A stretch of 64,000 bases of DNA from Actinomycetota bacterium (GCA_039028435.1 JBCCIC010000019.1:6053-70052); one strand, 5' to 3'. Positions 10,656 to 36,227 are shown, counted from the first letter of the stretch. The notes: generated from the sequence alone by a model not told the origin. Program-made: numbers and translations.

Positions 10656-10668
10656 CGAAACAACCAGC
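10656..10668 (+). repeat. CGAAACAACCAGC intergenic motif, copy 1
   Basis: Exact 13-mer in the gap before 10732. Confidence 0.7.
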
Positions 10669-10671
10669 ACC

Positions 10672-10684
10672 AGAAACAACCAGC
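10672..10684 (+). repeat. AGAAACAACCAGC intergenic motif, copy 2
   Basis: 12/13 match, 3 nt after copy 1. Followed by the GCCCGAAAGCGGGC hairpin. Confidence 0.7.
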
Positions 10685-10731
10685 CCGAAAGCGGGCCCAC
10701 CACCACACCCGACCCGGAAGGGAATCCAGTC

Positions 10732-11106
10732 ATGGCAACCAGCACGCTCACCGAGCCCGTCACGCTCGGCCGAGTCCGCACCTACCTCACCGACATCGGA
10801 TGCGTCGCCACCCAACGGCGACACATCAACCACACCCGAGACCGGTGCCCGATCCTCGCCGGCGGCTCCGGCAACGAGATCGTCATCGTCACCATCAACG
10901 ACCTCACCCGGTTCGAGAACGCCGAGTACCTGTGGGACGAATCACTCCCCCACGACCACCCTGGCTACGAGCTCTCTGACGCGAACCGGGTCGAGAAGAT
11001 CCTCGTCTACTCGGCGGTCACCGAGAACCTGGTCGTCGAGTTGTGCGCCGACTCGTGGCCCGCAGTGTCCGCAGTGCTCCTCGCGGCCGCCCAGCAGGCC
11101 TGGTGA
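10732..11106 (+). CDS. hypothetical phage protein
   Basis: ATG after GGAAGGGAA. 124 aa. Confidence 0.55.
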   Translation: MATSTLTEPVTLGRVRTYLTDIGCVATQRRHINHTRDRCPILAGGSGNEIVIVTINDLTRFENAEYLWDESLPHDHPGYELSDANRVEKILVYSAVTENLVVELCADSWPAVSAVLLAAAQQAW

Positions 11107-11111
11107 ACGCC

Positions 11112-11402
11112 ATGCCGAACACCAGCGTCCTCGACGCTCGCACCGCGCCGCCGAACATGCGAGCCGAACTCACGAAGATCCTCAACGGCATCGACGGCAT
11201 CACTGCCGAGGAGCACACGAACACGCTCGCCCGCATCGAGGCCCTCATCGCCAGCAACACCGTTTGGTGGACCGTCGAACCCGGATCGAACGGTCACAGC
11301 TCAGTGGTGACCAACACCAACCAACCCGGCGTGAAGAGGTTCCCCGACCGACAGTGGCGAGTCTGCGTCTGGGGCGACGGCTTCGAAGGCACCGAACGAT
11401 GA
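11112..11402 (+). CDS. hypothetical phage protein
   Basis: ATG at 11112. Its stop overlaps the next start (ATGA). Confidence 0.5.
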   Translation: MPNTSVLDARTAPPNMRAELTKILNGIDGITAEEHTNTLARIEALIASNTVWWTVEPGSNGHSSVVTNTNQPGVKRFPDRQWRVCVWGDGFEGTER

Positions 11403-12292
11403 CCGCCGTCGTACCCGTCGAAGAGACGGTCCGCTGGTACCCCAACGCCGACGTCGTGTTGAACCTCGAGTTCGCAGATGAACACGAACGACTCACCGTG
11501 CGCACCACCGGCATCGGTTCGTCCGACATCAACATCATCCTCGGCGACTCGCGGTGGCAGACCCCGCTCGAGTTGTGGGAGGTGAAGACCGGCCGCACGC
11601 CGATCGATACAACCACCAGCGAGGCCGCAGAGTGGGGCCAAGCCCTCGAACCGGTGATCGCCCGCAAGTTCTCGCAACGCCACGACTGCCGAATCGTGAA
11701 CCTGCCCTTCGTTCTCGCCCGACGGGACAAGCCCTGGCATCGTGCGTCACCCGACTCAGGCGTCGAGTTCTACGCACGGCCGACTCTCGTCGAGATCAAG
11801 TGCCGCGACCAGTACGGCTGGGACTCAATCGACCCGGCTGTCTACGACCAGGTGCAGTGGCAGCTCCACGTGACCGGCCTCGACGACGCCTACATCGTGG
11901 TGCTCTTCCGCGGCCGCGAGATGCCACCACCGTGGCCCGTGAGACGCGACCAGGAGCGCATCGACTACCTCATCGAGAAGGTCGACGAGTTCTGGGGCTA
12001 CGTCCAGCTCGACGAGCCGCCACCACCGATGCCGACGGACACGCGGCGCCTCACACCGGCCGATGGCCAGAAGGTCGCGGATAACGACATCCTGGCGAAG
12101 GTCACGGTCCTCGACGAGTGGAAGGAACTCGCCGACGCCGCCAAGGCCGTCGCCGACGAAGCGGCCGACGAGCTGCGCCTCTCGCTCGTCGACCACGACG
12201 AGCTCGTCGACGCCGACGGAAACCGCCTCTACACGTACCGCATGTCCGAGAAGACCGGACGTCGCACGCTTCGAAAGGTGGCGCGCCGATGA
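11399..12292 (+). CDS. YqaJ-like (lambda Exo-type) recombination exonuclease
   Basis: GIGSSDINIILG ... TPLELWEVKTG ... SPD ... VEIKC, a PD-(D/E)XK pattern. Directly upstream of RecT. Confidence 0.75.
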   Translation: MTAVVPVEETVRWYPNADVVLNLEFADEHERLTVRTTGIGSSDINIILGDSRWQTPLELWEVKTGRTPIDTTTSEAAEWGQALEPVIARKFSQRHDCRIVNLPFVLARRDKPWHRASPDSGVEFYARPTLVEIKCRDQYGWDSIDPAVYDQVQWQLHVTGLDDAYIVVLFRGREMPPPWPVRRDQERIDYLIEKVDEFWGYVQLDEPPPPMPTDTRRLTPADGQKVADNDILAKVTVLDEWKELADAAKAVADEAADELRLSLVDHDELVDADGNRLYTYRMSEKTGRRTLRKVARR

Positions 12293-13413
12293 CGATCACC
12301 GACAGCTCGACCGACCTAGTCATCGCCGCACCCGAGGGCGGAATCCTCACCTTCGACGACACACACCGTCGTCTCATCGCCGACCAGATCGCGCCCGGCG
12401 CGTCGCCCGCCGAGATCGAGACGTTCCTGTACGTCTGCGCTCACGTGCAGCTCGACCCGATGCGCAACCAAATCTGGCTCGTACCCCGATACGACTCGCA
12501 GCTCCGCCGCAAGGTCTTCAAGCCACAGACCGGCATCGACGGTCTCCGGCTGATCGCCGAACGCACTCGTCTCTACGGCGGATCCCTCGCGCCTCAGTGG
12601 TGCGGCCCTGACGGTGTTTGGCTCGACATCTGGGCCAACCCTGACCGGCCGCCGACCGCGGCCCGGTTCCAGGTCACCCGCAAGGACTGGGACCAGCCGG
12701 CCGTCGGTATCGCGACCTGGGAAGAGTTCGCCGTGACCGTCCCGCAGTACGAGAAACGCAACGGCAAGAACGTCAAGGTCGGCACGAAGCTCGCGCCGAT
12801 GTGGGAACAGATGGGCCCCCACATGCTCGCGAAGTGCGCTGAGGCGCAGGCGCTGCGCCGAGCGTTCCCGGCCGAGATGTCGGGCCTCTACACCGATGAC
12901 GAGATCGCAGCGGCGCTGGAACAGGAACGGGAGCAGGTCACCGTCATCGACGCATCATCTGTCGCGACCGCGAACGACGGGATCTCCGAGGACGAACGGC
13001 GAAGGGTGCAAGAAATCTTCGCTGAGCTCATGCCCCGGTTCCACCAAGTCGGCGACGTCAACGAGTTCAAGAAGCGGCTCAGGGCCGAAGCTGACGAGCG
13101 CGGGATCGGTCCGATCGATCGAGTCACTGGCAACGCGCTCACCCTCGCTCAGGCCGAACTGATGCGCGACCTCCATGCCGAAGTAGCCGGCGGCGACACC
13201 GAAGTGATCGAGGGCGAGCTCGTCGGACCGGGTGAACCGTGGACCGATTCTCCCGAGGGCGACACGACCGTTGCTGTGTCGATCTACGCCGCCCATGTCG
13301 GCGTGAAAGACGATACGCACACTCCAGTCGAGCGTCTGCAGGCGATCGCCGATCACCACGCATGCACACCCGAAGAAGCGCTCGACCGGGTGCGGGAATG
13401 GGCGGGGCTGTGA
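12289..13413 (+). CDS. recT: RecT-family single-strand annealing protein
   Basis: FLYVCAHVQLDPMRNQIWLVPR ... GIDGLRLIAERT ... MLAKCAEAQALRRAFP. ATGA overlap with the exonuclease gene. Confidence 0.8.
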   Translation: MTITDSSTDLVIAAPEGGILTFDDTHRRLIADQIAPGASPAEIETFLYVCAHVQLDPMRNQIWLVPRYDSQLRRKVFKPQTGIDGLRLIAERTRLYGGSLAPQWCGPDGVWLDIWANPDRPPTAARFQVTRKDWDQPAVGIATWEEFAVTVPQYEKRNGKNVKVGTKLAPMWEQMGPHMLAKCAEAQALRRAFPAEMSGLYTDDEIAAALEQEREQVTVIDASSVATANDGISEDERRRVQEIFAELMPRFHQVGDVNEFKKRLRAEADERGIGPIDRVTGNALTLAQAELMRDLHAEVAGGDTEVIEGELVGPGEPWTDSPEGDTTVAVSIYAAHVGVKDDTHTPVERLQAIADHHACTPEEALDRVREWAGL

Positions 13414-13577
13414 GCCAGACGTTGACCCCCGGCGATGACCGCACCTCGACGCAGATGCTGACCGACTCGCTCGCAGCGCTCGATTCGTGGCGCACCCACC
13501 AGGCCGACGCGCAACGCGCCCGAACCACCCGACCCTCCCGCCTACACCGAAAGGAGCACAACGATGGCGTTCGGTAA
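13410..13577 (+). CDS. possible small phage protein (55 aa)
   Basis: GTGA overlap with the recT stop. High third-position GC. Overlaps the ssb start by 14 nt. Confidence 0.3.
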   Translation: MSQTLTPGDDRTSTQMLTDSLAALDSWRTHQADAQRARTTRPSRLHRKEHNDGVR

Positions 13578-14013
13578 CACCGTCACGGTCGTTGGCAATC
13601 TGACCCGCGACCCCGAGCTGCGGTACACGCCGACCGGCGCGTCGGTCTGCAACTTCGGCGTCGCCTGGAACAAGCGCTACCAGCGCAACGGCGAACAGGT
13701 CGAGGAGGTCAACTACTTCGAGTGCACCTGCTTCGGCGACCTGGCCGAGAACGTCGCAGGCTCGCTCTCGAAAGGCACACGGGTCGTCATCGTTGGTGAA
13801 CTCCAGCAGCGTTCCTGGGAGACACCCAACGGCGAGCGTCGCTCAAAGGTCGAGGTCCGATGCGACGAGGTCTCCCCGTCGCTCAGGTGGGCCTCCGTCG
13901 AGGTGACCAGGAACGAGCGCACCGGCGCCCCGCAGACGCCCAGCTCGCCAGCGAATCAGCACCCCACACCGGCACCGGTGCCCGACTACAACTACGACGA
14001 GGAGCCGTTCTGA
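13564..14013 (+). CDS. ssb: single-stranded DNA-binding protein
   Basis: OB-fold N-terminus VTVVGNLTRDPELRYTPTGASVCNFGVAWN. Pro-rich linker and acidic tail DYNYDEEPF. Confidence 0.9.
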   Translation: MAFGNTVTVVGNLTRDPELRYTPTGASVCNFGVAWNKRYQRNGEQVEEVNYFECTCFGDLAENVAGSLSKGTRVVIVGELQQRSWETPNGERRSKVEVRCDEVSPSLRWASVEVTRNERTGAPQTPSSPANQHPTPAPVPDYNYDEEPF

Positions 14014-14446: not shown

Positions 14447-14492
14447 GTCGCCCGGCCCGGCCTCTCCCGCCAAGTCGCCAGGGCCGGGCGAC
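14447..14492 (+). terminator. stem-loop between early genes
   Basis: Perfect 12-bp stem GTCGCCCGGCCC / GGGCCGGGCGAC, immediately upstream of motif copy 3. Confidence 0.45.
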
Positions 14493-14496: not shown

Positions 14497-14509
14497 CGAA
14501 ACAACCAGC
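14497..14509 (+). repeat. CGAAACAACCAGC intergenic motif, copy 3
   Basis: Exact 13-mer, 18 nt before the TTG start at 14528. Confidence 0.7.
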
Positions 14510-14527: not shown

Positions 14528-15265
14528 TTGACCACTCTCGCCACACCCCACAACGCCGGGCTGCTCGCCCGCTCATGGCTCACAGCGTTCGCCGCGACCT
14601 CCACCAACGAAGACCAGTACACGCTGTTCCGCAGCCTCGAGGTCGAACACTTCATCGACCGAGGCCTCCGGGTCACGTCCACCGACTCCTATGTCCTCGC
14701 GTCGGTGTGGTGCCCGAGCGGCGACATCGAAGCGCCCCTCCCCGAGGAGCCGCCGGACGAGACGTTCGCGGTCTACGACGAGGACAAGCGCGGCGTCGCG
14801 TTCATGAAGCACGCCGCGAAGCTCGCGACCGCCGCCGCCAAGGACGAAGCCGCGCCGGTCCCCGTCATCACCGCCCTGGTGCGCAAGGCCCGCCCCTCGT
14901 CGCAGCTCACCCTGTTCGGTAGCGGCGAAGCCCGCGAGCTCGTCGTGTCGTTGAACGACGGCGACGAGACCGTCGCGATGGGCATCCGATCGGACGGGTA
15001 CCCGAACTGGCGGTCCGTGCTCGTCGGCACCGGGCTCGACATCAGCCCTCCGGACACACCTGACTTCGGTCTCTCCGCTCACACGCTGACCGTGATGGCG
15101 AACGTGTCGAAGTCCTTCGGTGACACTCACCCGATCGTCGCCCGACCGTCGTCTGATCACCCGCAGATGATCCGGTTCAACGCAGACGGTTTCGCCGGCG
15201 AGCCAGCGCTGCAGGGCGTGTTCACCCTCGCCACCCGCCCCGATGATCAGGACGGCGAAGGATGA
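14528..15265 (+). CDS. DNA polymerase III beta-clamp-like protein (short, two-domain size)
   Basis: LEVEHFIDRGLRVTSTDSYVLA and SDGYPNWRSVLV resemble the DnaN strand and the conserved (F/Y)P(D/N)(Y/W)xxV(I/L) linker. TTG start. Confidence 0.4.
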   Translation: MTTLATPHNAGLLARSWLTAFAATSTNEDQYTLFRSLEVEHFIDRGLRVTSTDSYVLASVWCPSGDIEAPLPEEPPDETFAVYDEDKRGVAFMKHAAKLATAAAKDEAAPVPVITALVRKARPSSQLTLFGSGEARELVVSLNDGDETVAMGIRSDGYPNWRSVLVGTGLDISPPDTPDFGLSAHTLTVMANVSKSFGDTHPIVARPSSDHPQMIRFNADGFAGEPALQGVFTLATRPDDQDGEG

Positions 15266-18449: not shown

Positions 18450-18462
18450 CGAAACAACCAGC
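18450..18462 (+). repeat. CGAAACAACCAGC intergenic motif, copy 4
   Basis: Exact 13-mer, followed by CGCTCTCTACC. Confidence 0.7.
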
Positions 18463-18519
18463 CCGCCCCGCTCTCTACCCCGACAACCCCGAACAGTCAC
18501 GCGAAGGACTCCACCACGC

Positions 18520-18822
18520 ATGTCCCAGCTCATCCACGCGCCCCCGTCCGTCACCATCGGCCGCTGCCGCACCTGCCGAGAACCGATCGTGTGGGGCGTC
18601 ACCAGCACCGGTGCCCACATCCCGATCGACGCCGACCGCACCTATCAGCCGACCCTCGTGCCCGTCGGCCAGGTCGTGCCCGTCGATCCCGACACGATCG
18701 GAACGGACCCGCCGGCGACACCCATACCGGTAGCGGTAGGCGCGCCGCCGAACCAGACCGAGACCCTGTTCGGCGGACCCGATCAGCGGCCCCGCTGGAA
18801 CCGTCACCGGTGCCGCCAGTGA
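18520..18822 (+). CDS. hypothetical protein with CxxC pair
   Basis: ATG at 18520. GRCRTCREPIVWG. Confidence 0.45.
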   Translation: MSQLIHAPPSVTIGRCRTCREPIVWGVTSTGAHIPIDADRTYQPTLVPVGQVVPVDPDTIGTDPPATPIPVAVGAPPNQTETLFGGPDQRPRWNRHRCRQ

Positions 18823-19301
18823 CCGCCGCCATCCCGCTCTCGGAAATCAAGACCGGCCCCAAGACCGGCCCGCAAGCTGACGCCATCGCTGCGCTCGCGT
18901 TCACCGCGAGCCTCGGAAGCAACGACGACTGGGCAGAGATCGCGGACGCTCTCGCAGGCCTCGACGGCAACGAGGCCGCGACCGTCGTCGCGCGCCGAGC
19001 ACGCGACCTCGCGAACCAAATCACCCCGTCGACCTACCTCGAGGTCGCCGCACGCATGTCGTCATTGACGATCGGAGACATCACCGGCCGCCGCCAGGAC
19101 CGCACCGCCGCCGAAGCCCGCCACGTCGCCGCCTGGCTCCTCCGAGAACGCACCACCCTCTCCTACCCGCAGATCGGCGCGATCCTGGGCCGCGACCACA
19201 CAACCGTCCACTCGTCGGTTGAGCGTGTCCGTGCCGAGATCGGAACCGACACGCCACTGGCGCGGCTCGCCCGCTACGCCGAGATGGAGCTCCGCGGATG
19301 A
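18819..19301 (+). CDS. DnaA C-terminal-domain-like HTH protein
   Basis: RRQDRTAAEARHVAAWLLRERTTLSYPQIGAILGRDHTTVHSSVERV matches the DnaA domain IV pattern. GTGA junction. Confidence 0.65.
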   Translation: MTAAIPLSEIKTGPKTGPQADAIAALAFTASLGSNDDWAEIADALAGLDGNEAATVVARRARDLANQITPSTYLEVAARMSSLTIGDITGRRQDRTAAEARHVAAWLLRERTTLSYPQIGAILGRDHTTVHSSVERVRAEIGTDTPLARLARYAEMELRG

Positions 19302-20035: not shown

Positions 20036-20048
20036 CGAAACAACCAAC
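20036..20048 (+). repeat. CGAAACAACCAAC intergenic motif, copy 5
   Basis: 12/13 match. Followed by GAAGGAACCAACC and the ATG at 20065. Confidence 0.7.
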
Positions 20049-20064
20049 CCCGAAGGAACCAACC

Positions 20065-21171: not shown

Positions 21172-21828
21172 GTGCGATCTCAAGGCTGGCGCAGCCAAGC
21201 CGCGTGCCTCGGGCATCCACCGGATTGGTGGATTCGTTCCGTCGATGTCGCCCCACCCGCGGCCGGCGCCGGGTTCGACGAGCTGATCGATTTCGTTGTC
21301 GAGCACGACGTGCCGGTCGAACCGACCGACGATCTCGACCTGCTGCGTGAAGCGATCGACGAGTGGATCGGCGGCGTTGACCAGAACCCGCACCCGTACG
21401 CCCGCACCTTGTGCACCGTGGTGTGCCCGGTCCGAGTCGAATGCGTTACTGCGTCGCTCGATTACCCGAGCGATGTCGGCATGTTCGGCGGGTTCGGCCA
21501 GAACACCCGCCGGCTGCTTCGCCGCCGCGTCGGACTCGTCCCAGACGCGCAGCGGTTGAGCGTCGTCGCCGGGTTCCTCGAGCACGAGGGACCGGTCGAC
21601 TCGAACGGCCCGGGCGCCACGTGCGGCCGCACCTCAACGTATGGCCGCGGGTGCCGCTGCCTGCCGTGCCGTCACGCCTCCGCGTTCGCTTGGCGGTCGT
21701 CGCTGCCTGAGAAGCCGGCACGCCCCGTCGTCGTGCAGGCGCGGCATCGGATCCGCTGCGAACACGTCGATGTCGGCGCTTGCACCGCGTGCCGCCACCG
21801 CACCGCCGCGACTCGAGTCGCGGCGTAA
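21172..21828 (+). CDS. WhiB-like Fe-S transcription factor with long insertion and C-terminal GCRC motif
   Basis: W-x3-AAC, then LCTVVCPVRVEC and GMFGGF as in WhiB. Extra ATCGRTSTYGRGCRCLPCR. GGGAGGG ribosome-binding site and GTG start. Confidence 0.55.
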   Translation: MRSQGWRSQAACLGHPPDWWIRSVDVAPPAAGAGFDELIDFVVEHDVPVEPTDDLDLLREAIDEWIGGVDQNPHPYARTLCTVVCPVRVECVTASLDYPSDVGMFGGFGQNTRRLLRRRVGLVPDAQRLSVVAGFLEHEGPVDSNGPGATCGRTSTYGRGCRCLPCRHASAFAWRSSLPEKPARPVVVQARHRIRCEHVDVGACTACRHRTAATRVAA

Positions 21829-21838: not shown

Positions 21839-21851
21839 CGAAACAACCACC
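21839..21851 (+). repeat. CGAAACAACCACC intergenic motif, copy 6
   Basis: 12/13 match. Preceded by the CCGCGACTCGAGTCGCGG palindrome and followed by GAAGGAACCAACC. Confidence 0.7.
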
Positions 21852-21933
21852 TGAAGGAACCAACCCCGATGCCCATCGATCACATCCCGCCCGATGCCTC
21901 TGTCGTAGGCGCCACCGGACGTAGGCCGCGCTG

Positions 21934-22749
21934 ATGACGAGCACGCATGAGCTCACATCGGCACTGGTCCGGTATCACGGTTCGAAGTCGAGACCACCGA
22001 TCGTGTGGGAGGAGATCGAGGCCGACTCGTCGCTTGGTCGATGCCGGTTCGATGTCCTCACGGCCGACGTGCTCGCCGGGCACCGGTTGCGTCTCCGGGC
22101 GTGGGAGGTGAAGGTCACGGCGCAGGATTTCTGGCGCGACGTCGAAGCCGAGAAGTCACGCAAGTACCTCGACGCCGGCGCATCGTGCGTCACCTACGTC
22201 GTCCCGCGAGGGCTTGTGTCGAAGTCCGACTGCCCCGAGTGGGCGGGGCTCATGACGTGGAACCCGGACACCGGAAGCTTCCGTACCACCCAGCGCGCGC
22301 CGGTCGAGATCCGGCCAATCAAGCCCGAGTTCATGGTTCGACTCATCCTGCGCTCGGAGGAGAAGAAGATCCGGCCGACCGAGACCCGATCCGAGCGTAT
22401 GGATCGATACCGCGCCGACATGCGGATGTCGTACTGGCTGAACATCGCAGCGTCACGGATGATCGAGAACGCCCGGTCGGCTGAAGACCGGGTGCAGTGG
22501 AAGATCGAGAACGCAGAGCGGGCGCAACGCCAGGCCGACGCGATGCTCGAACGTGCCCGCCAAGCCGGACCCGTCGCCTCTGCACTCTCGGACGTGCTGC
22601 GCCACGCATCGACCCTGTTGAGCCCCAGGCAAGGCTCCCTTTCGTCTGAGCCGACGAGGGGTCTCGACGAGTTCCTGGAGACCGCCGCGCTGATCGTCCC
22701 CGAGTCGTCACATCGCGAGCCGTGGCGGCCGACACCGGTGGCGTCGTGA
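21934..22749 (+). CDS. PD-(D/E)XK nuclease-like protein (MmcB-like)
   Basis: CRFDVLTAD ... AWEVKVT matches a D ... E-x-K nuclease core. C-terminal coiled coil. Confidence 0.45.
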   Translation: MTSTHELTSALVRYHGSKSRPPIVWEEIEADSSLGRCRFDVLTADVLAGHRLRLRAWEVKVTAQDFWRDVEAEKSRKYLDAGASCVTYVVPRGLVSKSDCPEWAGLMTWNPDTGSFRTTQRAPVEIRPIKPEFMVRLILRSEEKKIRPTETRSERMDRYRADMRMSYWLNIAASRMIENARSAEDRVQWKIENAERAQRQADAMLERARQAGPVASALSDVLRHASTLLSPRQGSLSSEPTRGLDEFLETAALIVPESSHREPWRPTPVAS

Positions 22750-24568: not shown

Positions 24569-24711
24569 TGCTCTAACAGGTGCTCGTCAGTAGCCGACCG
24601 ACTTGCCGTGCCCGAAGCCGGGCCTGATCGTCACCGGGCTGGGCGGAGAGTCCCGCAGGCGCTACGGGAGCCGACAAGAAACTCGAAAAGGAATCCACTA
24701 GTCTCAACGCT

Positions 24712-25017
24712 GTGGCCCGGGAGTTGAAACCGTGCGGCACCCTTGCCGCCTACCAAAGGCACTGGCGACGAGGCGAGCGTCCCTGCGAAGCCTGCAAAGA
24801 AGCGATGCGAGTCGCAGCCCGCAACCGACTCCGTCGCCGCGGCATACGGCCACGAGGACCGTTGAAACCTTGCGGAACGGTCGCTGCCTACCAACGACAC
24901 TGGATCAACGGCGAAGAACCCTGCGAGCTGTGCAAGGAAGCGATGCGTATCAGCGCCAGAGAACGCGGCCGCAAGAAACGCATGGCCAACCAAACAGCAC
25001 AGCAGACAGCCCGATGA
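24712..25017 (+). CDS. protein with two tandem C-x9-H-x7-C-x2-C zinc-like repeats
   Basis: KPCGTLAAYQRHWRRGERPCEACKEAM and KPCGTVAAYQRHWINGEEPCELCKEAM. GTG start. Confidence 0.55.
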   Translation: MARELKPCGTLAAYQRHWRRGERPCEACKEAMRVAARNRLRRRGIRPRGPLKPCGTVAAYQRHWINGEEPCELCKEAMRISARERGRKKRMANQTAQQTAR

Positions 25018-25170
25018 CCACGGTCAAGTGCACCACAGACGGCTCGGCGACGACTCGTCGGTTACAGATCCCGATTTTGGACTATCAAACACAATTGATG
25101 AGCGCATTTGCCCAACTACTGGCTTTCGATCTATTGTGCGGGCATTCGGTCCACACCTCGGGAGAATGTT

Positions 25171-25464
25171 ATGTTTGCAATGGTTCGCAACTCGATCGGC
25201 CGCTCGATAGCCATCGCCGCGGTCCTCGCAGGGCTACTGCTGGGACTGTCAGCCCTGTCGCCGATCGGACCGGAAGCCGACGCGGCGCCGGGGAACTGCT
25301 ACGGGCCACCACATGAGCACGGCGTACATCCGTCCATTGATACGCACGTGGGCACAGGTCAGATCACGAACTGGTGGGGCAACAACTACGAGCTGTGGAA
25401 CCAGTACAACAACCAGTACCCATACGGCGCAGGGCTCGGTTGGGCGTACTGCGGCTACTACTAG
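25171..25464 (+). CDS. small secreted Trp/Tyr/Asn-rich protein
   Basis: Signal peptide ending PEADA-AP. About 65-aa mature part with 2 Cys, ending WAYCGYY. GGGAGA ribosome-binding site. Visibly AT-richer upstream DNA. Confidence 0.6.
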   Translation: MFAMVRNSIGRSIAIAAVLAGLLLGLSALSPIGPEADAAPGNCYGPPHEHGVHPSIDTHVGTGQITNWWGNNYELWNQYNNQYPYGAGLGWAYCGYY

Positions 25465-25474
25465 GAGCTCGCCA

Positions 25475-26362
25475 ATGACGCGCTGGCTGGCGTGCGTAGC
25501 AGCGGCCCTGCTGCTCGCAGCCGCCTGCGCGTCAGAGGGCGACAGCTCCGCCTCGGAATCGACCAGCGCCCAGTCATCTGACCTGAAAGCGCTTCACGAG
25601 CTCGAACAGGACGCAATCGAACGGTGCATGCTCGACGCAGGTTTCGAGTTCGAACGATGGCCCTTCGTACCATTCGATGATCAGGCGGCAGCCCCAGAGG
25701 ACTTCCTGACGCTAAACACAGCAGACACGTTGGGTTACCGACTGTTGTTCTCCGCAATCCGCAACTACACGCCATCAGCGATCCCCCCGGAGTCCGCTCT
25801 GGCAAGCCAACAGACGTTCGACGAGTTCAGCGTCGCGCTATGGGGCCCGAACGACCATACACACGAACACGATCACGATCACGACGACACCCACACCCAC
25901 GGCGGCTGCGCTGCATCGGGTGCGCAAGTTCGTCGTGATGCCGATTCGATTGCCGGGTACGGCGATCGAATCGGCGAGGTGTTCGACTCAGTGCTTAGCG
26001 ACACCAGCTACGTCGAGTACTCATCGATGTGGGTCGAATGCCTGAAGGAGGCTGGTTTCGAGCCCCGAGCAGCGACACCCGATCGGCAAATCGTGTCGTA
26101 CCACATCGCCGAAGGACGATCGGTGCAAGCCGTTGTGACCGAGCTCTATGAGAACGAGGATGACGACGGTCCGATCCATGTCGCCGCAAGCCAGCGACTG
26201 CTGGATGAGGCCTGGCTCCTCTCCGTGACGAGCAACTACACGTCGCTTGCTGACCTACTTGACGCCGAGATTCTCGAAGCCCAGGCAGACCAGCGGTGCC
26301 GCGAAGAACACCGGGAGATCATCGCTCCTGTGGTCGAGCAGGCCTACGAGCTTCACTTCTAA
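25475..26362 (+). CDS. lipoprotein with His/Asp-rich metal-binding-like tract
   Basis: MTRWLACVAAALLLAAAC lipobox. HTHEHDHDHDDTHTHGG tract. Confidence 0.6.
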   Translation: MTRWLACVAAALLLAAACASEGDSSASESTSAQSSDLKALHELEQDAIERCMLDAGFEFERWPFVPFDDQAAAPEDFLTLNTADTLGYRLLFSAIRNYTPSAIPPESALASQQTFDEFSVALWGPNDHTHEHDHDHDDTHTHGGCAASGAQVRRDADSIAGYGDRIGEVFDSVLSDTSYVEYSSMWVECLKEAGFEPRAATPDRQIVSYHIAEGRSVQAVVTELYENEDDDGPIHVAASQRLLDEAWLLSVTSNYTSLADLLDAEILEAQADQRCREEHREIIAPVVEQAYELHF

Positions 26363-26530
26363 CCAGATCGTCGACGACGCAACTATGCGGCATTCCGCCG
26401 CGTCCCTGTGAGGGTCATCGCATCAGCTGACGTTCCCAGGCATGGTGCGCCTCGACCTCGCCTGGCCGGTATCGAGCCTCCTCGCCCGCCCCACACGCGA
26501 TGGCACGACACCCCGCGCAGCCCTCGTCTG

Positions 26531-26794
26531 ATGGCTCGGATCGAAGCACGCCGAACCGACACCCGCTGCCCGACCGGAAAGGTCCCGTACCGGTCAAAGG
26601 CGAAAGCCCGCCAGGCGATGATCCAGTGGAACTCGAAGCGAGGCCACGCGCCTCGAGGCGCGTTCCGGCCGCCGGATCAGCATCGGCTGTTGAACGTGTA
26701 CGAGTGCGGTCTGTGCGGTGATTGGCACACCACGAAGCAGGCGCCGGATGCGAGGTGCGGGAAGACCGGCCGGTGCGAATGCTGCGCTAGCTGA
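26531..26794 (+). CDS. small zinc-ribbon protein
   Basis: CPTGKVPYRSKAKARQAM ... YECGLCGDWHTT. Confidence 0.5.
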   Translation: MARIEARRTDTRCPTGKVPYRSKAKARQAMIQWNSKRGHAPRGAFRPPDQHRLLNVYECGLCGDWHTTKQAPDARCGKTGRCECCAS

Positions 26795-26795
26795 C

Positions 26796-28154
26796 TTAGG
26801 GCAGCATGGTCCAATAGCGGCCCACCAAATCAGCGACTGCTGATGCGTACCTCAGCACGACGTTGACCACGGTCCGGACGAAGTCTGTGTCTCGGATCGC
26901 GCGGTCATACAGGTGTCGACCAGCTGCCTGACCGATCCCCTGGGGCAGGCCCTTCGCCCACCGGACCAAGGCGCGTTCCGCGATACCAGACTCCGCGGGG
27001 CGCATTTGGCGTATGAACTCAAGGGCGACATCAACCTTCTTCTCGAGGGACTCCAAGCGCTCGGCAGTGCGTTGTCCAGAGAGGTTCGGCTCGCCGATCA
27101 ACTCCAATGCGTGAATCATTCCCATCACCCGCTCGGCCAGATCCAGTACAAATCCGGGCGGTTGGGCCCCGAGACCAGTAAGAACATCGCAGATGGTTTG
27201 TTGATCAAGGTCGCCGAGATCGATCATCAGTTCGCTGATGAGGCGCACTTGGCGTTCGATTGTGAATCGGTCCCCTACGTCGAGCCGGGTCTGAACGTTG
27301 ATCGTGTCGACGGCTGTGCGGAGCTGCACCTCAATGTCGCGCGGTATCGAGACCGTCTCGTCGGCGAGCATGCGCTCGAGGTCAGCATTTGGCCCTTCAA
27401 GCCGAGCGCGCGTCTGCGCTAGTGCCTCGCCAGACAGGGCTTCGACAGCGATTCTGCCCTCCTCGCTCCGGCCCGGGTCCGACCCAGATGGGATCTCGCG
27501 TTCGGTTTCGAGCGCTAGCGCAACGATCGCCGCCGCGTGCCAGAGGCTCACACGCACCCCAGCCCACACAAGACCGGCATGCACCCCAGCATCCGTAAAT
27601 GCCGCTATTTCCGCACCAGGACGGAGTGGGCCAAGTGGTCGATCGGCCGCGACGTAGTCACTGCTGAACGCGGCGGCGACGTCGTCGAACATGCCGCGTA
27701 GCCTCGCGATGAGGCCGAGCAGTTGGGCACCCCAGCCGCTCTGCCCCAACCGGCGGAAGAGCCGGTCTGAGCGAGCGAGGTGCGTGTCGTAGTCGCCGAG
27801 GCCGAGTGCGTAACCTACCGAGGCTCGAAGGGTGTGTTCAGGAAGGGTAAGTTCCGTTGTCCAACCGAGAGCCCGGTCCATCAAGCGGTCTATTGCGGCC
27901 TGAAACTGGTCGTTCAACGGTGGGTCGATCAGTGTCGAGCCTTCAAAGAACTTGATGATTTCCTGCAGCCGGTCGAGATCGCTGAGGCTTGCGCTCTGCA
28001 GCGCCCGCGCTGCGTTATTCACGTCGAACTGAGTGAGTTGACCGGCTCGCTCAAAGATCGTGAGCTCCAATTCCGGATCCACAGTCCCCAAGGTAGCCAA
28101 CAGATGACCTCGCGTCCGGGTGCTTCGAGGGCTGTACTTCAAGATCCGGGGCAT
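26796..28154 (-). CDS. orphan alpha-helical protein (about 430-452 aa), opposite strand to the late operon
   Basis: Long ORF with gene-like composition and no recognisable motif. Its stop is 1 nt from the convergent zinc-ribbon gene stop. Start uncertain: ATG at 28154 or GTG at 28082. Confidence 0.55.
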   Translation of the reverse strand: MPRILKYSPRSTRTRGHLLATLGTVDPELELTIFERAGQLTQFDVNNAARALQSASLSDLDRLQEIIKFFEGSTLIDPPLNDQFQAAIDRLMDRALGWTTELTLPEHTLRASVGYALGLGDYDTHLARSDRLFRRLGQSGWGAQLLGLIARLRGMFDDVAAAFSSDYVAADRPLGPLRPGAEIAAFTDAGVHAGLVWAGVRVSLWHAAAIVALALETEREIPSGSDPGRSEEGRIAVEALSGEALAQTRARLEGPNADLERMLADETVSIPRDIEVQLRTAVDTINVQTRLDVGDRFTIERQVRLISELMIDLGDLDQQTICDVLTGLGAQPPGFVLDLAERVMGMIHALELIGEPNLSGQRTAERLESLEKKVDVALEFIRQMRPAESGIAERALVRWAKGLPQGIGQAAGRHLYDRAIRDTDFVRTVVNVVLRYASAVADLVGRYWTMLP

Positions 28155-28494
28155 GGCGAACCCCGACATGCCAATGACCGCCCGCCGCGACGAGTTCCGC
28201 GACGCCCTCGAAGCGCTCTTCGCCGAGTACGCCGACATCATCTCGCCACTCGGCTCAGTCCGGTTCGACCAAGAAACCCACGAGATCGACCCGCTGGAAC
28301 AGGCCGAGCTCGAGGAAGAGATCCAGGCCCACCAGTACTTCGTGTCGAACTGGGTCCTTGCCATCGGACACGAACCTTTGGTCGACGACGAACGAGAACA
28401 CCCGTACATGCAGCAGATCCAGAAGCGCCAGCAATCGCCATGGGCGTCGAGCGGTCTGCTCGCCCACGCGCTCGGTGCCTACCAGCGGCGGTGA
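28153..28494 (+). CDS. hypothetical phage protein
   Basis: ATG at 28153, with alternatives at 28168 and 28174. Acidic, 113 aa. Confidence 0.5.
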   Translation: MANPDMPMTARRDEFRDALEALFAEYADIISPLGSVRFDQETHEIDPLEQAELEEEIQAHQYFVSNWVLAIGHEPLVDDEREHPYMQQIQKRQQSPWASSGLLAHALGAYQRR

Positions 28495-32195: not shown

Positions 32196-32903
32196 ATGAA
32201 GGGACCTCAAGTCATGCGCCGGTTCGCTCGAATGCTCGGTTTCCACACCCGATTGCTCGCCTTGTTCGCGATGCTCACGCTCACCGGCGACGGCGGCGAC
32301 AGCGGCGGCGGGGACAGCAACAGCGGCAGCAGCAAGAACGATGACGGTGGCGGCGACGAAGCACACGCGCAGGCAATCGCACAGGCCGAGGCCGCCGCAG
32401 CAGCCAAGGCCAAGGCCGACGTCGAAGCGAGCGTCGCCGAGACCCTCGGCATGAGCCCCGCAGAAGCGAAGAAGATCCTCGACGCCAAGAACGCCGCCGA
32501 CCGCGAGGCAATGACCGAAGCCGAGCGGATCAAGGCCGAAGCCGAAGACAAGGCAGCGGCCGCCGACAAGGCGAAGAGCGAAGCCGAGACCGCGATCCAC
32601 AACGCCAACGTCACCGCCGCCCTCTCCGAAGCCGGCGTCACCGACAATCCCGGAGCGCTCGTCCCGCTCGTCGTCGTCGACACCGGCGCCGACGCTGCCG
32701 CCATCAAGGCCGCCGTCGACACGCTCCTCAAGGAACGACCCGGCCTCGTCGACAAGCCCGGCCCAGCCGACCACAGCATCGGCGGCCGAGGATCCGCCGG
32801 CCAGAACGGCGGCGACACCAGCACCGCCAAGGAACGCGCCAAGAAACGCGCCGACGACTACCGGTCCCGGAACCAGCGCCCCCGCCTCGAAGCCGTCAAC
32901 TAG
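32196..32903 (+). CDS. scaffolding protein
   Basis: Ala/Glu/Lys-rich coiled coil, located between the portal and capsid genes. Confidence 0.7.
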   Translation: MKGPQVMRRFARMLGFHTRLLALFAMLTLTGDGGDSGGGDSNSGSSKNDDGGGDEAHAQAIAQAEAAAAAKAKADVEASVAETLGMSPAEAKKILDAKNAADREAMTEAERIKAEAEDKAAAADKAKSEAETAIHNANVTAALSEAGVTDNPGALVPLVVVDTGADAAAIKAAVDTLLKERPGLVDKPGPADHSIGGRGSAGQNGGDTSTAKERAKKRADDYRSRNQRPRLEAVN

Positions 32904-32939
32904 CTCGACCCCGTCCCAGCAACCAAGGAGAAGAACCCA

Positions 32940-33314
32940 GTGACCGAACTGGCTCAGACCCAAACCACCGACATCAGCGGGGACGACATCAACCCGTTCC
33001 TGTCGAAGACCCGTGAGGGTTTCAGCGTCACGATCGATGCTGCGAACCTGACCGCCGCCGACGTCGGCGGATCGTTTCCCGGCGTGCTCCGCAAGGGGTT
33101 CCCGCTCGGTGTCGCCGCCGATGGCGTCACCTACGAGAAGAAGGACGACGCCGACCTCGAAGGGCTCCTGTCGGAGTCGCTCCGAGTGAAGTCGGCGACG
33201 TCCGTCGTCCACGCGGCCCTGTGCCTCGAGGCAGTCGTCGACGAGTCGCTTCTGCCCGTCGCGATCACCCAGCCCGGCAAGGACGCCGTGGCCGGCCGGA
33301 TCACCTTCCGCTAG
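32940..33314 (+). CDS. head decoration-like protein
   Basis: 124 aa, directly upstream of the major capsid gene. GTG start after AAGGAGAAG. Confidence 0.45.
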   Translation: MTELAQTQTTDISGDDINPFLSKTREGFSVTIDAANLTAADVGGSFPGVLRKGFPLGVAADGVTYEKKDDADLEGLLSESLRVKSATSVVHAALCLEAVVDESLLPVAITQPGKDAVAGRITFR

Positions 33315-33342
33315 CCCCGCACGACCAGAGAGGTAACTGATC

Positions 33343-34344
33343 ATGACCAACACCCCTTTCGATGACCTGCCGGCACCGGCCGAGACGTCGCTGTTCGCGC
33401 GTGAGCTGACGAACGCCGAAGAGGAATCCAACTTCCTCGCTCAGTGGTTCCCGCGGCTCCAGACCCGCGACAACCGGTACACCGTGCAGTCGCTCAACAC
33501 CCAGACCGCGCAGGTCGCCGCGGTGCGTGCATTCGACGCTCGCCCCAAGCAGCTGAGCCGTGCGTTCGGGAAGGCCGGCAAGGACGGCGAGATCCTGCCG
33601 ATCTCCGCCGAGATGGACATGGGCGAGCTCACGACCATCCTCGAGCGGGCCCACGCGTCCGACGACCTGGTGAGCCAGGCGTACGACGACGTGGCCACGA
33701 CCGCGACGTCGGTGTGGAATCGTGTCCGCCAGCTTCAGGCCGAAGCGATCCTCGAAGGCAAACTCACGTTCTCCGACGCCACCGACCCCGGCATCGTGTT
33801 GGAACTCGACTTCGGCGACACGCCCGGGCGACGCGGTGCCGCCGGAACCGCATGGTCCGACCCTGCCGCAGACGCGTTCACCGACTACGTCAACCACGCC
33901 GAAGCCGCCGCCGAGCTACGCAACGAAGAGTCCAGCTACGCGCTGTTCTCCCGCGCCGCGCTCTCCGCGTTCCGCAAGAACGACGAAGTCCGCACCAACG
34001 TCGGCACCACCCTCCCCCGGGCATCGGTCGCCGACGTCCAGGCGCTGCTGTCCGACGAAGGCCTCCCGCCGATCCGGCTCTACAACGAGACCGTCGCCGG
34101 CCAGCGCCTCTTCCCCGCCGCGACCGTGATGTTCATGCCGACCTCGCCGATGGGCAACCTCGTCGAAGGCACCACCGCCGAGGTCGCATCCGGACAGGTC
34201 CCACTGACCGGGAACGACCGCGCCGGCGTCATCTCGGTCGTCGAGGTCGAAACCCGCCCGACCCGGGTCATCACCTTCTCGAACGCTCTGTCGTTCCCGG
34301 TGTGCAACCCGGACGGCTTCTACCGGTTCGAGACCGGCATCTAG
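33343..34344 (+). CDS. major capsid protein (lambda E-like size and position)
   Basis: 333 aa after the scaffold and decoration genes, followed by a strong hairpin. Confidence 0.75.
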   Translation: MTNTPFDDLPAPAETSLFARELTNAEEESNFLAQWFPRLQTRDNRYTVQSLNTQTAQVAAVRAFDARPKQLSRAFGKAGKDGEILPISAEMDMGELTTILERAHASDDLVSQAYDDVATTATSVWNRVRQLQAEAILEGKLTFSDATDPGIVLELDFGDTPGRRGAAGTAWSDPAADAFTDYVNHAEAAAELRNEESSYALFSRAALSAFRKNDEVRTNVGTTLPRASVADVQALLSDEGLPPIRLYNETVAGQRLFPAATVMFMPTSPMGNLVEGTTAEVASGQVPLTGNDRAGVISVVEVETRPTRVITFSNALSFPVCNPDGFYRFETGI

Positions 34345-34376
34345 ACCCCGACTCGGGAGAGCCAGGGACAAGGAGC

Positions 34377-34409
34377 GGTGGGAAGGGCCAGTTGGTTCCC
34401 TCTCCCACC
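34377..34409 (+). terminator. stem-loop after the capsid gene
   Basis: GGTGGGAAGGG / CCCTCTCCCACC, an 11-12 bp stem with one bulge. No U tract. Confidence 0.45.
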
Positions 34410-34472
34410 GCCCCTTGACCCGGCAAACCCCACAGAACGGCACCACACCCACACTCGAGAGGAATCCCCGAA

Positions 34473-34901
34473 ATGGCCCGCCAACTGAAGAACCGAGTCT
34501 GCGTCAACGACACCTGGTACGAGGCGGGCACGACCCCGCCGGCCGCTGTCGCCGCGAAGATCACGAATCCCGCTGCATGGGGCGAGGAAGCCGAGGCGCC
34601 GATCGTCGCGCCAGGCGGTGACCTGCCGCCCGCGAACGCGAAGCTTGCCGAACTTCAGGCATTCGCGGAGGCGAACAGCATCGATCTCGACGGCGCAACG
34701 AAGAAGGACGACATCCGGACCGCCATCGACGCTTGGGCCGCCGGCGACGAGATCGAGATCCCCGGCCCGGAAGCGACGATCGACGAGCTCCGAGCTTTCG
34801 CCGAGACGCACGACATCGATCTCGGTGACGCCGATGATCAGCTCGCGATCCTGAGCATCATCGACGAGTGGGCTGACGACAACCTCGCACCCGAGGACTG
34901 A
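34473..34901 (+). CDS. protein with two HeH/Rho-N (SAP-like) motifs
   Basis: LAELQAFAEANSIDLDGATKKDDIRTAI and IDELRAFAETHDIDLGDADDQLAILSII. Confidence 0.6.
   Translation: MARQLKNRVCVNDTWYEAGTTPPAAVAAKITNPAAWGEEAEAPIVAPGGDLPPANAKLAELQAFAEANSIDLDGATKKDDIRTAIDAWAAGDEIEIPGPEATIDELRAFAETHDIDLGDADDQLAILSIIDEWADDNLAPED
34770..34832 (+). repeat. 63-nt intragenomic repeat, copy A
   Basis: 59/63 identical to 38235-38297. Encodes the HeH motif. Confidence 0.85.
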
Positions 34902-34907
34902 TCACCG

Positions 34908-35234
34908 ATGTCGCTCGGACCAGCTGAGATCGCGGTGATCCGCCGCCATGTCGGCGACCACCCCGAACTCTCCGAGCTCGAGGACATCAACGACCGGACA
35001 GGCGACCCGCTGAAGACCGCGCTCGAGATCCTCGAGATCCGCTACGCGAACATGGAAGCCGACGCCGCCAAGAACGCGCTGGCGGACGGCCCGTCCGAGG
35101 ACTGGACAGCGAACCTGAAGTCGCTCGCAGGACGCGTCGCTCAACTCCGAGCCGACATCGCCGCAGCCGACGCCGCGACCCAGACCGACACAAGCAACGT
35201 CGCCTACGTGACCGGCCACATCACCGTCCGCTGA
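34908..35234 (+). CDS. head-tail connector/adaptor-like protein
   Basis: Assigned by size and position only. Confidence 0.4.
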   Translation: MSLGPAEIAVIRRHVGDHPELSELEDINDRTGDPLKTALEILEIRYANMEADAAKNALADGPSEDWTANLKSLAGRVAQLRADIAAADAATQTDTSNVAYVTGHITVR

Positions 35235-35235
35235 T

Positions 35236-36168
35236 GTGACCCAGCCGGTCGAAGTCACCCAAGCCGTAGACGTCATCGTCGCCGCGTTCAGCACCGTCCA
35301 GGAACGGCTCGAAGCCGAGTACGCCGCGATCCTCACAAACCCTGCGAAGGCAGCGAGAGCACGCCGAATCCGAGGCGTCGCAGCGATGATCTCCCGACAG
35401 ATCCGAGGCCTCGAGGACACAGCCGGCCGATGGGTCGCCGACCAGGTACCCAAGGTCTACGAGCTCGGAGCGAACGCCACCGAACTCGGGTTCACATTCA
35501 CCCAGTTCCACCGGCAAGCCGTCCAGGTGCTCCAGGACGACATGTACGACGACGTCCTCGCCGCGACCCGGTTCATGTCGACCGACTCGAAACGGTGGAT
35601 CCGCGACGCCTCACGAATCCTCGCCGCAGAGGGTCACGTCGAGGGCGTCGCGCCCCGCGACCTAGCACGGCGCTTCGCTCGCATGTCGCCGAGGGCGATC
35701 GACCGCGCTGGTCTCCCGATGCCGATCACGGCCGCCCGCTACTCCGACGGGTCGATGCGCACGATCGACGACTACGCCGACATGCTGTTCCGCACCAAGA
35801 CCGCGGCCGCTCACAACGCAGGGACGATCAACAGATCCAGGGAACTCGGCATCGATCGATTCGAGATCCGCGACGGCCCCGGGTGCAAGCTCCGTGGCCA
35901 CGGCGAACCAGGCCCCGATGACGCGCACGGCAAGGCCGTCGACGCCGAAACCGCCGCCGCCTATCCGCTGAGTCACCCGAACTGCCGGCGAGTATTTTTG
36001 GCGCGCCCGGATCTGCCGAACGACTCGCCGACCGAACCCGTCCCCGAAGGAACGCCGCCGGGGCCGGTACCGCTTCCCGACCCTCCGACGTCCGAGTCGA
36101 CCCGCCGGCCCCGCGCTCAGCGTCAACAGCGCACGCTCCGCTCGCAGCGTCGATCTCGAGGCAACTGA
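35236..36168 (+). CDS. MuF/SPP1 gp7-like minor capsid protein
   Basis: GPGCKLRGHG ... YPLSHPNCRR signature. GTG start. Confidence 0.6.
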   Translation: MTQPVEVTQAVDVIVAAFSTVQERLEAEYAAILTNPAKAARARRIRGVAAMISRQIRGLEDTAGRWVADQVPKVYELGANATELGFTFTQFHRQAVQVLQDDMYDDVLAATRFMSTDSKRWIRDASRILAAEGHVEGVAPRDLARRFARMSPRAIDRAGLPMPITAARYSDGSMRTIDDYADMLFRTKTAAAHNAGTINRSRELGIDRFEIRDGPGCKLRGHGEPGPDDAHGKAVDAETAAAYPLSHPNCRRVFLARPDLPNDSPTEPVPEGTPPGPVPLPDPPTSESTRRPRAQRQQRTLRSQRRSRGN

Positions 36169-36214
36169 CGGGCCAACCCTCGACCCCCGGTCGTGGCGAC
36201 CGGAGGTCTCGGGC

Positions 36215-36227
36215 CGAAACAACCAGC
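36215..36227 (+). repeat. CGAAACAACCAGC intergenic motif, copy 7
   Basis: Exact 13-mer after the CCGGTCG-TGG-CGACCGG hairpin. Followed by CTGAAAGCGCCGCTCTCTAAC. Confidence 0.7.

Follow-up and report, generated by a model that had tools for sequence, protein, structure and literature searches.

A one-directional 13-nt repeat in the intergenic gaps of an actinobacterial prophage and its possible role in the transcript

Described gap motifs and the prophage repeat

Oriented, phage-specific motifs in intergenic gaps are well documented in actinobacteriophages, e.g. the stoperators (PMC9283540), the start-associated sequences (SAS) and extended SAS (ESAS) of Cluster K (PMC3203893, PMC11373665) and the motifs of Clusters EF and EC (PMC7302621). 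Such dispersed motifs are common in this group of phages, and a function has been proven only for the stoperators. Here we describe a 13-nt repeat, CGAAACAACCAGC, in a 64,000-nt stretch of a metagenome-assembled genome designated "Actinomycetota bacterium" (GCA_039028435.1, JBCCIC010000019.1:6053-70052; hereafter the window, with positions counted from its first nucleotide). The window has a G+C content of 61-70% and harbors a siphovirus-type prophage from about 9.1 to 53 kb, which is transcribed rightward almost throughout. The oriented gap repeat is a real and non-random feature of this prophage, and we tentatively suggest that it may act as a single-stranded RNA leader element at the boundaries of cistron blocks, in ribosome loading or processing.

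In its placement the repeat resembles most closely the 18-bp motif TAGaCTATaGGTgTaAgC of the Cluster EC Microbacterium phages, which is asymmetric and present in about 12 copies in small gaps, in one orientation and upstream of the ribosome-binding site (RBS), among the non-structural genes as well as in a few structural gaps, one of them beside a MuF-like gene (PMC7302621). The sequence and the tie to hairpins and stop codons are its own. The EC motif is an unrelated, longer sequence at a fixed distance of 21-30 bp from the start codon, as against 16-104 nt here, and no hairpin association has been reported for it. Furthermore, the EC phages are lytic and encode a sigma factor, whereas the present element is a prophage in which none was seen.

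The SAS of Cluster K mycobacteriophages and EF Microbacterium phages (GGGATAGGAGCCC and GGGAAAGGACCCC, respectively) are likewise 13 nt long, asymmetric and of one orientation (PMC3203893, PMC7302621, PMC11373665). They number about 10-19 copies, mostly before non-structural genes, and are phage-specific, absent from the host and related to the Shine-Dalgarno (SD) sequence. With them the repeat shares its length, asymmetry and orientation, its position mainly before non-structural genes and its absence from the window flanks and from other sequence collections. However, SAS lie 3-9 bp from the start codon and include the SD core, whereas the present motif stands upstream of a separate SD, and its link with the stop codon or hairpin before it is closer than that with the start after it. 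In the property that defines SAS it thus differs, as it ends 16-104 nt from the start codon and contains no GG.

The stoperators of Cluster A phages, i.e. the sites of L5 gp71, are also alike in being asymmetric, 13-14 bp long, dispersed over short intergenic regions and oriented with transcription (PMC9283540, PMC6550527). Their sequence recurs as the operator of the early lytic promoter, a genome has 20-30 of them, and the protein that binds them is the immunity repressor. The prophage has eight copies, none of them at its switch, where the repressor is a small HTH_31 protein and the candidate operators are other sequences. A stoperator-like site, one of the possibilities raised in the initial annotation, therefore holds in form (13 nt, asymmetric, oriented, intergenic) and fails as an immunity operator, because no copy lies in the immunity switch. 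Lastly, the lambda nut and rrn signals (boxA CGCUCUUA and UGCUCUUUA, respectively, and the boxB hairpin) resemble the locus in combining a hairpin with single-stranded boxes (PMC2724277). A pyrimidine-rich box found after some copies, CGCUCUCUAAC, is like boxA, and downstream of a cro-like gene there is a tandem copy accompanied by a small hairpin. In contrast to nut sites, the motif has many copies in the genome, hairpin and boxes follow one another differently, the 13-mer has no counterpart and no N-like protein was found.

The phage lineage concerned has been sampled poorly, and its host is an uncultured actinobacterium. To the features described before, the present case adds three, namely the link with the stop or 3' hairpin of the gene before it instead of the start after it, the likeness to a copy of the RBS region that lacks GG, and the occurrence of two motif classes in the one genome, of which one is clearly promoter-like in its geometry and a direct contrast is possible. 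Together these would make the prophage a compact test bed for action of such motifs in RNA (ribosome loading or processing) as against DNA. The practical value is modest, and concerns annotation of regulatory punctuation in phages and parts for expression control in high-GC hosts.

Copies, surroundings and conservation of the 13-mer

The sequence CGAAACAACCANC occurs in six exact copies, at 10656, 14497, 18450, 20036, 21839 and 36215, all on the plus strand, against an expectation of 0.01; none of 100 shuffles gave six. Two further copies, each with one mismatch, stand in matching context at 10672 (AGAAACAACCAGC) and 38891 (CGAAACCACCATC), bringing the total to eight, again all on the plus strand. 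The initial annotation had counted seven copies, of which six are exact and the one at 10672 departs by one mismatch from the consensus given there, while the eighth, at 38891, had been missed.

10656..10668, plus strand: motif copy A1, CGAAACAACCAGC, 48 nt past the stop codon of the HTH_17 gene; first of a tandem pair
10672..10684, plus strand: motif copy A2, AGAAACAACCAGC, one mismatch; 16 nt from A1, start to start
14497..14509, plus strand: motif copy B, with an AAAGGA Shine-Dalgarno 5 nt downstream and a TTG start at 14528
18450..18462, plus strand: motif copy C, 7 nt past the stop codon of a secreted-protein gene
20036..20048, plus strand: motif copy D, 1 nt past the stop of the HNH gene
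21839..21851, plus strand: motif copy E, with GAAGGAACCAACC at +1 and, after it, a 21-codon upstream open reading frame (ORF), 21869-21934
36215..36227, plus strand: motif copy F; in a relative (L162, see below), TGAAACGACCACC stands in the homologous gap
38891..38903, plus strand: motif copy G, CGAAACCACCATC, degenerate; abuts a hairpin and is followed by CGCTCTCCCAAC

All eight copies are situated in non-coding gaps. About 12% of the prophage span consists of such gaps, and chance placement would thus amount to about 0.12^8. Both the restriction to the plus strand and that to gaps had been claimed before and were borne out, and so was the stated distance of 16-104 nt from the motif end to the next start codon. 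At 14497, 20036 and 21839 the motif begins 29-31 nt before the start codon, ahead of the SD, and at the remaining five copies 60-117 nt before it. The early region holds six of the eight copies, the 25-kb late region just two. Only genes that have to initiate translation de novo, as the first of a coupled block, are preceded by the motif, which is never found at the many 4-nt overlaps. No copy was found in the immunity switch (9150-10060), even at two mismatches, in agreement with the earlier claim. Nor was there any on the roughly 18 kb of window flanks; the absence from the host flanks stands for this length, which is too little to speak of absence from the host genome.

Two other matches were set aside, namely a one-mismatch match at 11605, inside the RecE-like gene and without a hairpin or box context, and one at 25408 (AACAACCA), within a coding-like Tyr/Asn-rich ORF. 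An ORF call from the Logan data spanning 10656 and 10672 was judged to be wrong, since the G+C at the three codon positions is 0.56/0.63/0.73 there, as against 0.63/0.46/0.90 in the gene proper; the stretch with the tandem pair is therefore taken as non-coding. The gene after it starts at 10732, behind a good Shine-Dalgarno, GGAAGGGA. A search for complementary (antisense) copies of the motif on either strand found none, and the idea of an antisense RNA partner was dropped on that account.

When the eight sites were aligned on the motif, no other column was conserved between -45 and +60, and the motif itself is asymmetric, without dyad symmetry. The unit is thus about 12-13 nt long and has no fixed-register partner, which together with the missing dyad fits single-stranded recognition. 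What the sites do share is the ending that precedes them. The motif lies 1, 7 and 10 nt past stop codons at 20036, 18450 and 21839, respectively, and 0, 4 and 10 nt past exceptional hairpins at 38891, 14497 and 36215; overall, the interval from a stop codon or strong hairpin is 0-15 nt. The 50-nt folding energies of the four hairpins before motifs are among the lowest 0-4% of the prophage, which confirms as real the three that had been noticed earlier (before 14497, 21839 and 36215). The sites other than these three and 38891 have ordinary structure only.

14447..14492, plus strand: hairpin, -36 kcal/mol over 50 nt, lowest percentile; no U-tract; 4 nt before copy B
21804..21825, plus strand: hairpin CGCCGCGACTCGAGTCGCGGCG, ending at the stop codon of the WhiB-like gene; 4th percentile
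36177..36213, plus strand: hairpin after the MuF-like head gene, 1st percentile; inner stem CCGGTCG...CGACCGG
38852..38890, plus strand: hairpin of the lowest percentile, past the gene for the major tail protein; loop and stem partly conserved in L162
10683..10696, plus strand: small hairpin GCCCGAAAGCGGGC, overlapping the end of A2; on the minus strand it is terminator-like, a hairpin with a U-rich tract

The predicted probability of being unpaired is 0.71-0.95 at all eight sites, compared to 0.37 +/- 0.14 for random 13-nt windows, none of which (0 of 150) reached 0.8 or more. Another strong hairpin, CGGTGGGAAGGG...CCCTCTCCCACCG at 34345-34472, follows the major head protein gene and is itself followed by neither motif class of this prophage; hairpins and 13-mer are therefore separable. 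On the minus strand, 10682-10697 reads as a hairpin, GGCCCGCTTTCGGGCT, and then GGTTGTTTCT...GGTTGTTTCG, i.e. the complement of the tandem motif. TTNTTT is a NusG-dependent pause motif, and this pattern is present in the arrangement, which could stop leftward transcription toward the immunity region. As a general reading of the motif a minus-strand terminator was rejected, as only 10682-10697 fits it and elsewhere the U-rich complement precedes the hairpin.

A further regularity is the kinship of the motif with the translation signals of the phage itself. The strong-RBS consensus of the prophage is CCGAA(A)GGAAC, and the motif is a paralogue, without GG, of this Shine-Dalgarno plus its spacer. 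At 20036 the 14-mer CGAAACAACCAACC is followed in tandem by CGAAGGAACCAACC-ATG, with 2 mismatches over 14 positions, and the same layout is found at 21839, ahead of the 21-codon upstream ORF. The spacing from motif to RBS had been described as fixed; it is only approximately so, with GAAGGAAC at +3 (20036) and +1 (21839) and AAAGGACC at +5 (14497). Likeness beyond the 13-mer was noted in two pairs of sites, those at 20036 and 21839 sharing about 30 nt and those at 10672 and 36215 sharing GAAACAACCAGCC[CT]GAAAGCG. The upstream ORF (21869-21934, MPIDHIPPDASVVGATGRRPR) has a strong SD directly after copy E, and its stop overlaps the ATG of a 271-aa gene (TGATG), which suggests translational coupling.

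A second element is the pyrimidine-rich box CGCTCTC(T/C)(A/C)AC, located 6-10 nt after the motif at three of the eight sites, against 0.04 expected, and confined to the longer gaps (77, 116 and 163 nt). The CGCTCTCTA(A/C)C extension noticed earlier corresponds to it after 18450 and 36215, is missing after 10672, and is additionally present after 38891.

20051..20064, plus strand: Shine-Dalgarno plus spacer CGAAGGAACCAACC, directly before ATG 20065; matches the motif 14-mer CGAAACAACCAACC at 12 of 14 positions
18469..18479, plus strand: boxA-like extension CGCTCTCTACC, 6 nt after copy C
36238..36248, plus strand: boxA-like extension CGCTCTCTAAC, 10 nt downstream of copy F; the counterpart in L162, CGCTCTCCAAC, is 7 nt downstream of the copy there
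38910..38921, plus strand: boxA-like extension CGCTCTCCCAAC, 6 nt after copy G

A k-mer count over the gaps revealed a second motif class, CCGCGTCC, which is the most widespread word and serves as an internal control. It has nine copies, all on the plus strand (17744, 26398, 30415, 32135, 36288, 37998, 42326, 49062 and 51012), eight of which are situated in gaps, mostly in the late region and usually 0-11 nt past a stop codon. The architecture is CCGCGTCC, N23, a hexamer nAnnnT, N7 and the start codon. T is found at +37 in all nine copies, although T makes up 15% of the strand, A at +33 in seven, and a start codon at +43 to +45 in six; the six genes concerned, including those for the portal, a connector and the tape measure protein, have no Shine-Dalgarno. 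The motif recurs in two related loci, L162 (451, 7432, 9156 and 11212) and L163 (1499 and 3237), and both keep the distance of 44-45 nt that separates it from the starts of the portal and tape measure genes. These are probably late promoters yielding leaderless mRNAs, in which CCGCGTCC, at about -44 to -37, would occupy an activator-type position. The WhiB-like protein is a candidate partner, a link that we infer.

Relatives in which the 13-mer could be traced are scarce. A megablast search of 9-33 kb against 50,697 phages returned no match, and the best match to the portal by tblastn among sequenced phages was Streptomyces phage ZL12, at 28%. A collection of 5.8 billion proteins contributed just two portals at 59% identity and one RecT at 63%, all on short Logan contigs, while scans of IMG/VR and JGI metagenomes with the portal alignment yielded no relative of use. 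The only usable relative for the motif is L162, with one of the 59% portals, which covers the structural genes. Its gap homologous to 36169-36331 holds, in order, a hairpin, TGAAACGACCACC, CGCTCTCCAACA 7 nt later and CCGCGTCC, with 10 of the 13 motif bases and the CGCTCTC box kept while the remainder diverged. In addition, CGAAACCACCAACC heads a run of SD-like units in the non-homologous gap between scaffold and decoration genes of L162, where the RBS of the scaffold gene is CGAAAGCACCAGCC (CGAAAGCACCAGCCC-ATG). A match in locus L166 (CGAAACAACCGGC) is uninformative and probably in a coding region.

Elsewhere the searches came back empty or with chance matches. The motif is absent from 39 RecT-anchored IMG/VR loci (at most 45% identity), and the 14-mer CGAAACAACCAGCC has single chance matches only in IMG/VR. 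The composite GAAACNACCANC-N5-12-CGCTCTCYAAC was not found in IMG/VR; it has one chance match in GTDB genomes (Agarivorans) and, in JGI metagenomes, three matches that fall in coding sequences, of which a histidine-kinase-like gene contains two. A blastn search of phages with the leader of copy D gave chance matches only. Rfam had no match at gathering score in the whole window, with sub-threshold chance matches only in 36100-36400. A Streptomyces sp. prophage with a 30% identical portal (L168) has neither of the window motifs. It repeats a motif of its own, AGGCGCGGGGCCTG, in the neighborhood of its terminase and portal genes, where three gaps contain it (approx. 7700, 9960 and 11895), and lineage-specific gap motifs may thus be a general trait of this phage group. 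Conservation in related phages, the check proposed earlier, is hence positive for the homologous gap of L162 and negative for the Streptomyces relatives and for the 50,697 phages, IMG/VR, GTDB and JGI. On the thin basis of one relative, the sequence comparison indicates that the motif is under selection and yet lineage-specific, which points to a specific partner rather than to a universal host signal. The general notion of a phage-specific oriented cis signal is supported by the confinement to gaps and by the retention in L162.

A possible leader element in the transcript and competing explanations

The restriction to the sense strand, the single-strandedness, the adjacency to stops and hairpins, the kinship and phasing with the SD, and a second box at variable spacing favor action in the transcript. 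The explanation that we prefer, at a probability clearly below even, is a sense-strand element of the polycistronic mRNA, which would mark the start of an untranslated leader between coupled gene blocks. The A/C-rich motif would stay single-stranded by virtue of its composition and could serve as an unstructured docking (standby) site, holding a 30S subunit or a sequence-specific factor beside the structured 3' end upstream; what is docked would then be handed on to the true RBS of the first gene of the next block. The GAAA of the motif may pair with the terminal UUUC of 16S rRNA, and in the longer gaps the CGCUCUCUAAC box may shield the untranslated RNA. That the motif acts in RNA, is bound by a ribosome or factor and affects expression is deduced here from sequence. 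The SAS of Clusters K and EF and the 18-bp motif of Cluster EC are oriented gap motifs that are also thought to affect translation or expression (PMC3203893, PMC7302621, PMC11373665).

Several observations speak against such a leader element. For a standby site, the distance of 47-104 nt to the next start codon at four copies is large, and GAAAC gives merely 4-5 bp with the anti-SD. The gene after 36215 appears to have its own promoter-like CCGCGTCC-N23-CATCAT-N7-ATG and no Shine-Dalgarno, which would place the motif outside the leader of that gene, yet it is conserved in L162. Another five gaps between blocks (13414, 14014, 15874, 17736 and 20886) are without the motif. Being unpaired is partly a by-product of A/C-rich composition, and exact conservation over 11-13 nt exceeds what an unstructured state needs, implying a specific binder. 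Moreover, only one relative is informative.

The closest competitor, which we rate as improbable, is an intercistronic site for mRNA processing or 3'-end formation, where the exposed 13-mer, 3' of a protective hairpin, would be the substrate of an enzyme of the RNase E type or of a sequence-specific endonuclease from the phage, so splitting the long early transcript into pieces of differing stability. Mycobacterial RNA polymerase needs a U-tract for intrinsic termination, and since the hairpins lack U-tracts they are unlikely to be intrinsic terminators. The coupling of the motif to upstream hairpins and stops (0-15 nt) is tighter than that to downstream starts, the motif is predicted to be single-stranded and has two AA↓C contexts, and the site at 36215 is accounted for without a downstream gene, a better fit there than that of the leader element. 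Mycobacterial RNase E cuts single-stranded, C-rich intergenic RNA 5' of cytidines, at RN↓CNU (PMC10641625). The uridine at +3 of this pattern is however absent from the motif, and the specificity of the enzyme beyond the C at +1 is weak (PMC10641625), so that an exact 13-mer would not be maintained by it. A phage endoribonuclease was not identified in the protein family searches, and the kinship with SD plus spacer and the tandem phasing with the true SD, which suit a leader element, are left unexplained by cleavage.

Action in DNA is unlikely in our estimate, and a little more so than processing. Here the motif would be the site of a monomeric phage DNA-binding protein, a roadblock or regulator of the stoperator kind that is not tied to a CI-type repressor, with the Bac_DnaA_C-domain protein (18819-19301) and the HTH_17 protein (10266-10607) as candidates. 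Thirteen asymmetric base pairs in one orientation, in short gaps of both early and late regions, have the form of stoperators (PMC9283540, PMC3203893), and a tandem pair stands at the entry of the early operon. DnaA domain IV binds asymmetric 9-mers as a monomer, and the phage has no enrichment of canonical DnaA boxes, which occur at chance level. The motif is nevertheless unlike the DnaA box TTNTCCACA, and identity with it was rejected. The immunity switch, with TTGTAATTTG and GACAC repeats of its own, has no copy, the 25-kb late region has merely two, and RNA hairpins, stops, SD-like phasing and a second box at 6-10 nt are not what a DNA site would explain.

Antitermination, the third suggestion of the initial annotation, has a low probability in our view. 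In this case motif, hairpin and CGCUCUCUAAC would together form a nut/boxA-like signal, recruiting a host factor of the Nus type or a phage factor for processive antitermination or protection from Rho, whereby RNA polymerase crosses long untranslated gaps and hairpins. The box resembles lambda boxA CGCUCUUA and rrn boxA UGCUCUUUA (PMC2724277), an E. coli/lambda consensus that may not be that of the host, of which the window contains no rRNA operon; boxA protects other untranslated RNAs as well, and its consensus differs between phyla (PMC7665894). The excess of the box over expectation (three of eight sites against 0.04), its conservation in L162 and its restriction to the longer gaps, where Rho has access, all suit this explanation, as does the tandem motif with the GCCCGAAAGCGGGC hairpin downstream of the cro-like and HTH_17 genes, which is the position of lambda nutR. 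On the other hand, the eight copies are dispersed rather than one per operon, five have no box, the order of hairpin, motif and box is unlike that in lambda and Rfam is without match. Searches of PHROGs, Pfam and PDB found no gene like N, Q, NusG or RfaH. An equally low probability is given to the extended form of the idea, where 13-mer and CGCUCUCUAAC box would be a distributed boxA/nut-like signal at every long gap, shielding the operons from Rho and from the hairpins without U-tracts. If true, it would be an antitermination system of a distributed kind not described for actinobacteriophages.

A promoter element, one of the suggestions of the initial annotation, was not supported, and we consider it very unlikely that transcripts start at or just after the motif through an RNA polymerase holoenzyme that is alternative or modified by the phage. 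Other phages do have promoters of a single element (the T4 late promoters), and the motif is oriented, conserved and placed after hairpins and before gene blocks. Furthermore, most copies are early while the other motif dominates late, which resembles temporal classes. The motif has however no T and no partner element at fixed spacing, and at 20036 and 21839 there is no T from the motif to the ATG. This leaves no room for a -10 element if the SD is to be kept, and the start site would fall inside the motif. No RNA polymerase or sigma gene was found. The CCGCGTCC class, with its fixed partner element, displays what a promoter class looks like in this phage, and the 13-mer has nothing comparable, which argues against a promoter. 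A -35/-10 arrangement of the extracytoplasmic function (ECF) sigma type (GAAAC ... CGTC) was rejected, as the downstream part is not conserved and the spacing to CGCTCTC varies between 13 and 17 nt.

The least probable explanation is a non-functional relic, i.e. duplicated RBS-spacer segments or linkers left by recombination of gene cassettes, which would suit the near-copy of RBS plus spacer and the pairs of sites sharing more than the 13-mer, but is contradicted by the identical 11-mer core in six copies, none of which reverted to GG, by the homologous site kept in L162 while the flanking gap diverged, and by strict regularities of strand and context that point to selection.

Gene content and other sequences of the prophage

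The immunity region and the start of the early region comprise a leftward HTH_31 repressor (115 aa), a rightward cro-like HTH_31 gene and the HTH_17 protein (10266-10607). These are followed by early genes for RecE/YqaJ, RecT, SSB, a methyltransferase, a replication initiator, the Bac_DnaA_C-domain protein, an HNH nuclease and the WhiB-like protein. The late genes begin with the small terminase subunit, an insert of low G+C at third codon positions (GC3), the large terminase subunit, portal, scaffold, decoration and major head protein, and continue with the MuF-like protein, connector proteins, major tail protein, tape measure, distal tail proteins and endolysin. Genes for MMPL, CobW and WD40 proteins are found in the right flank, while the left side holds an AbiEii-type AAA_21 ATPase (3518-5368), an Imm51 protein (7549-7914) and an Ltp-like superinfection-exclusion lipoprotein (7934-9121). 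Neither an integrase nor an att direct repeat was found in the window, and the prophage may extend beyond the left window edge. A phage RNA polymerase, a sigma factor and NusG/RfaH-like or N/Q-type proteins were not detected in the PHROGs, Pfam and PDB searches; PDB sequence searches with four early proteins confirmed only the WhiB fold.

The immunity switch (9529-9717) is richer in A+T and contains two direct TTGTAATTTG repeats 24 nt apart, as well as several GACAC/GTGTC inverted repeats around TTGACA-like hexamers. These repeats are likely to be the operators and promoters of the HTH_31 pair. The product of 18819-19301 is a 160-aa protein with DnaA domain IV (Bac_DnaA_C, E = 4.6e-15), in which the DHTTV segment is kept. 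Another repeated word, the 8-mer ACGTTGAC, contains TTGAC and occurs on the plus strand at 13419, 21078, 26860 and 40963, with at least two copies in gaps without other motifs; no convincing -10 partner was seen for these copies. Between the small and large terminase genes, the approx. 3.5-kb region 24569-28120 has a lower G+C and a weak GC3, and includes a lipoprotein-like ORF, a small Tyr/Asn-rich ORF and a Cys-rich ORF without family matches. It looks like a foreign insert (a moron region), and the long minus-strand ORF at 26796-28409 looks like an antisense artefact.

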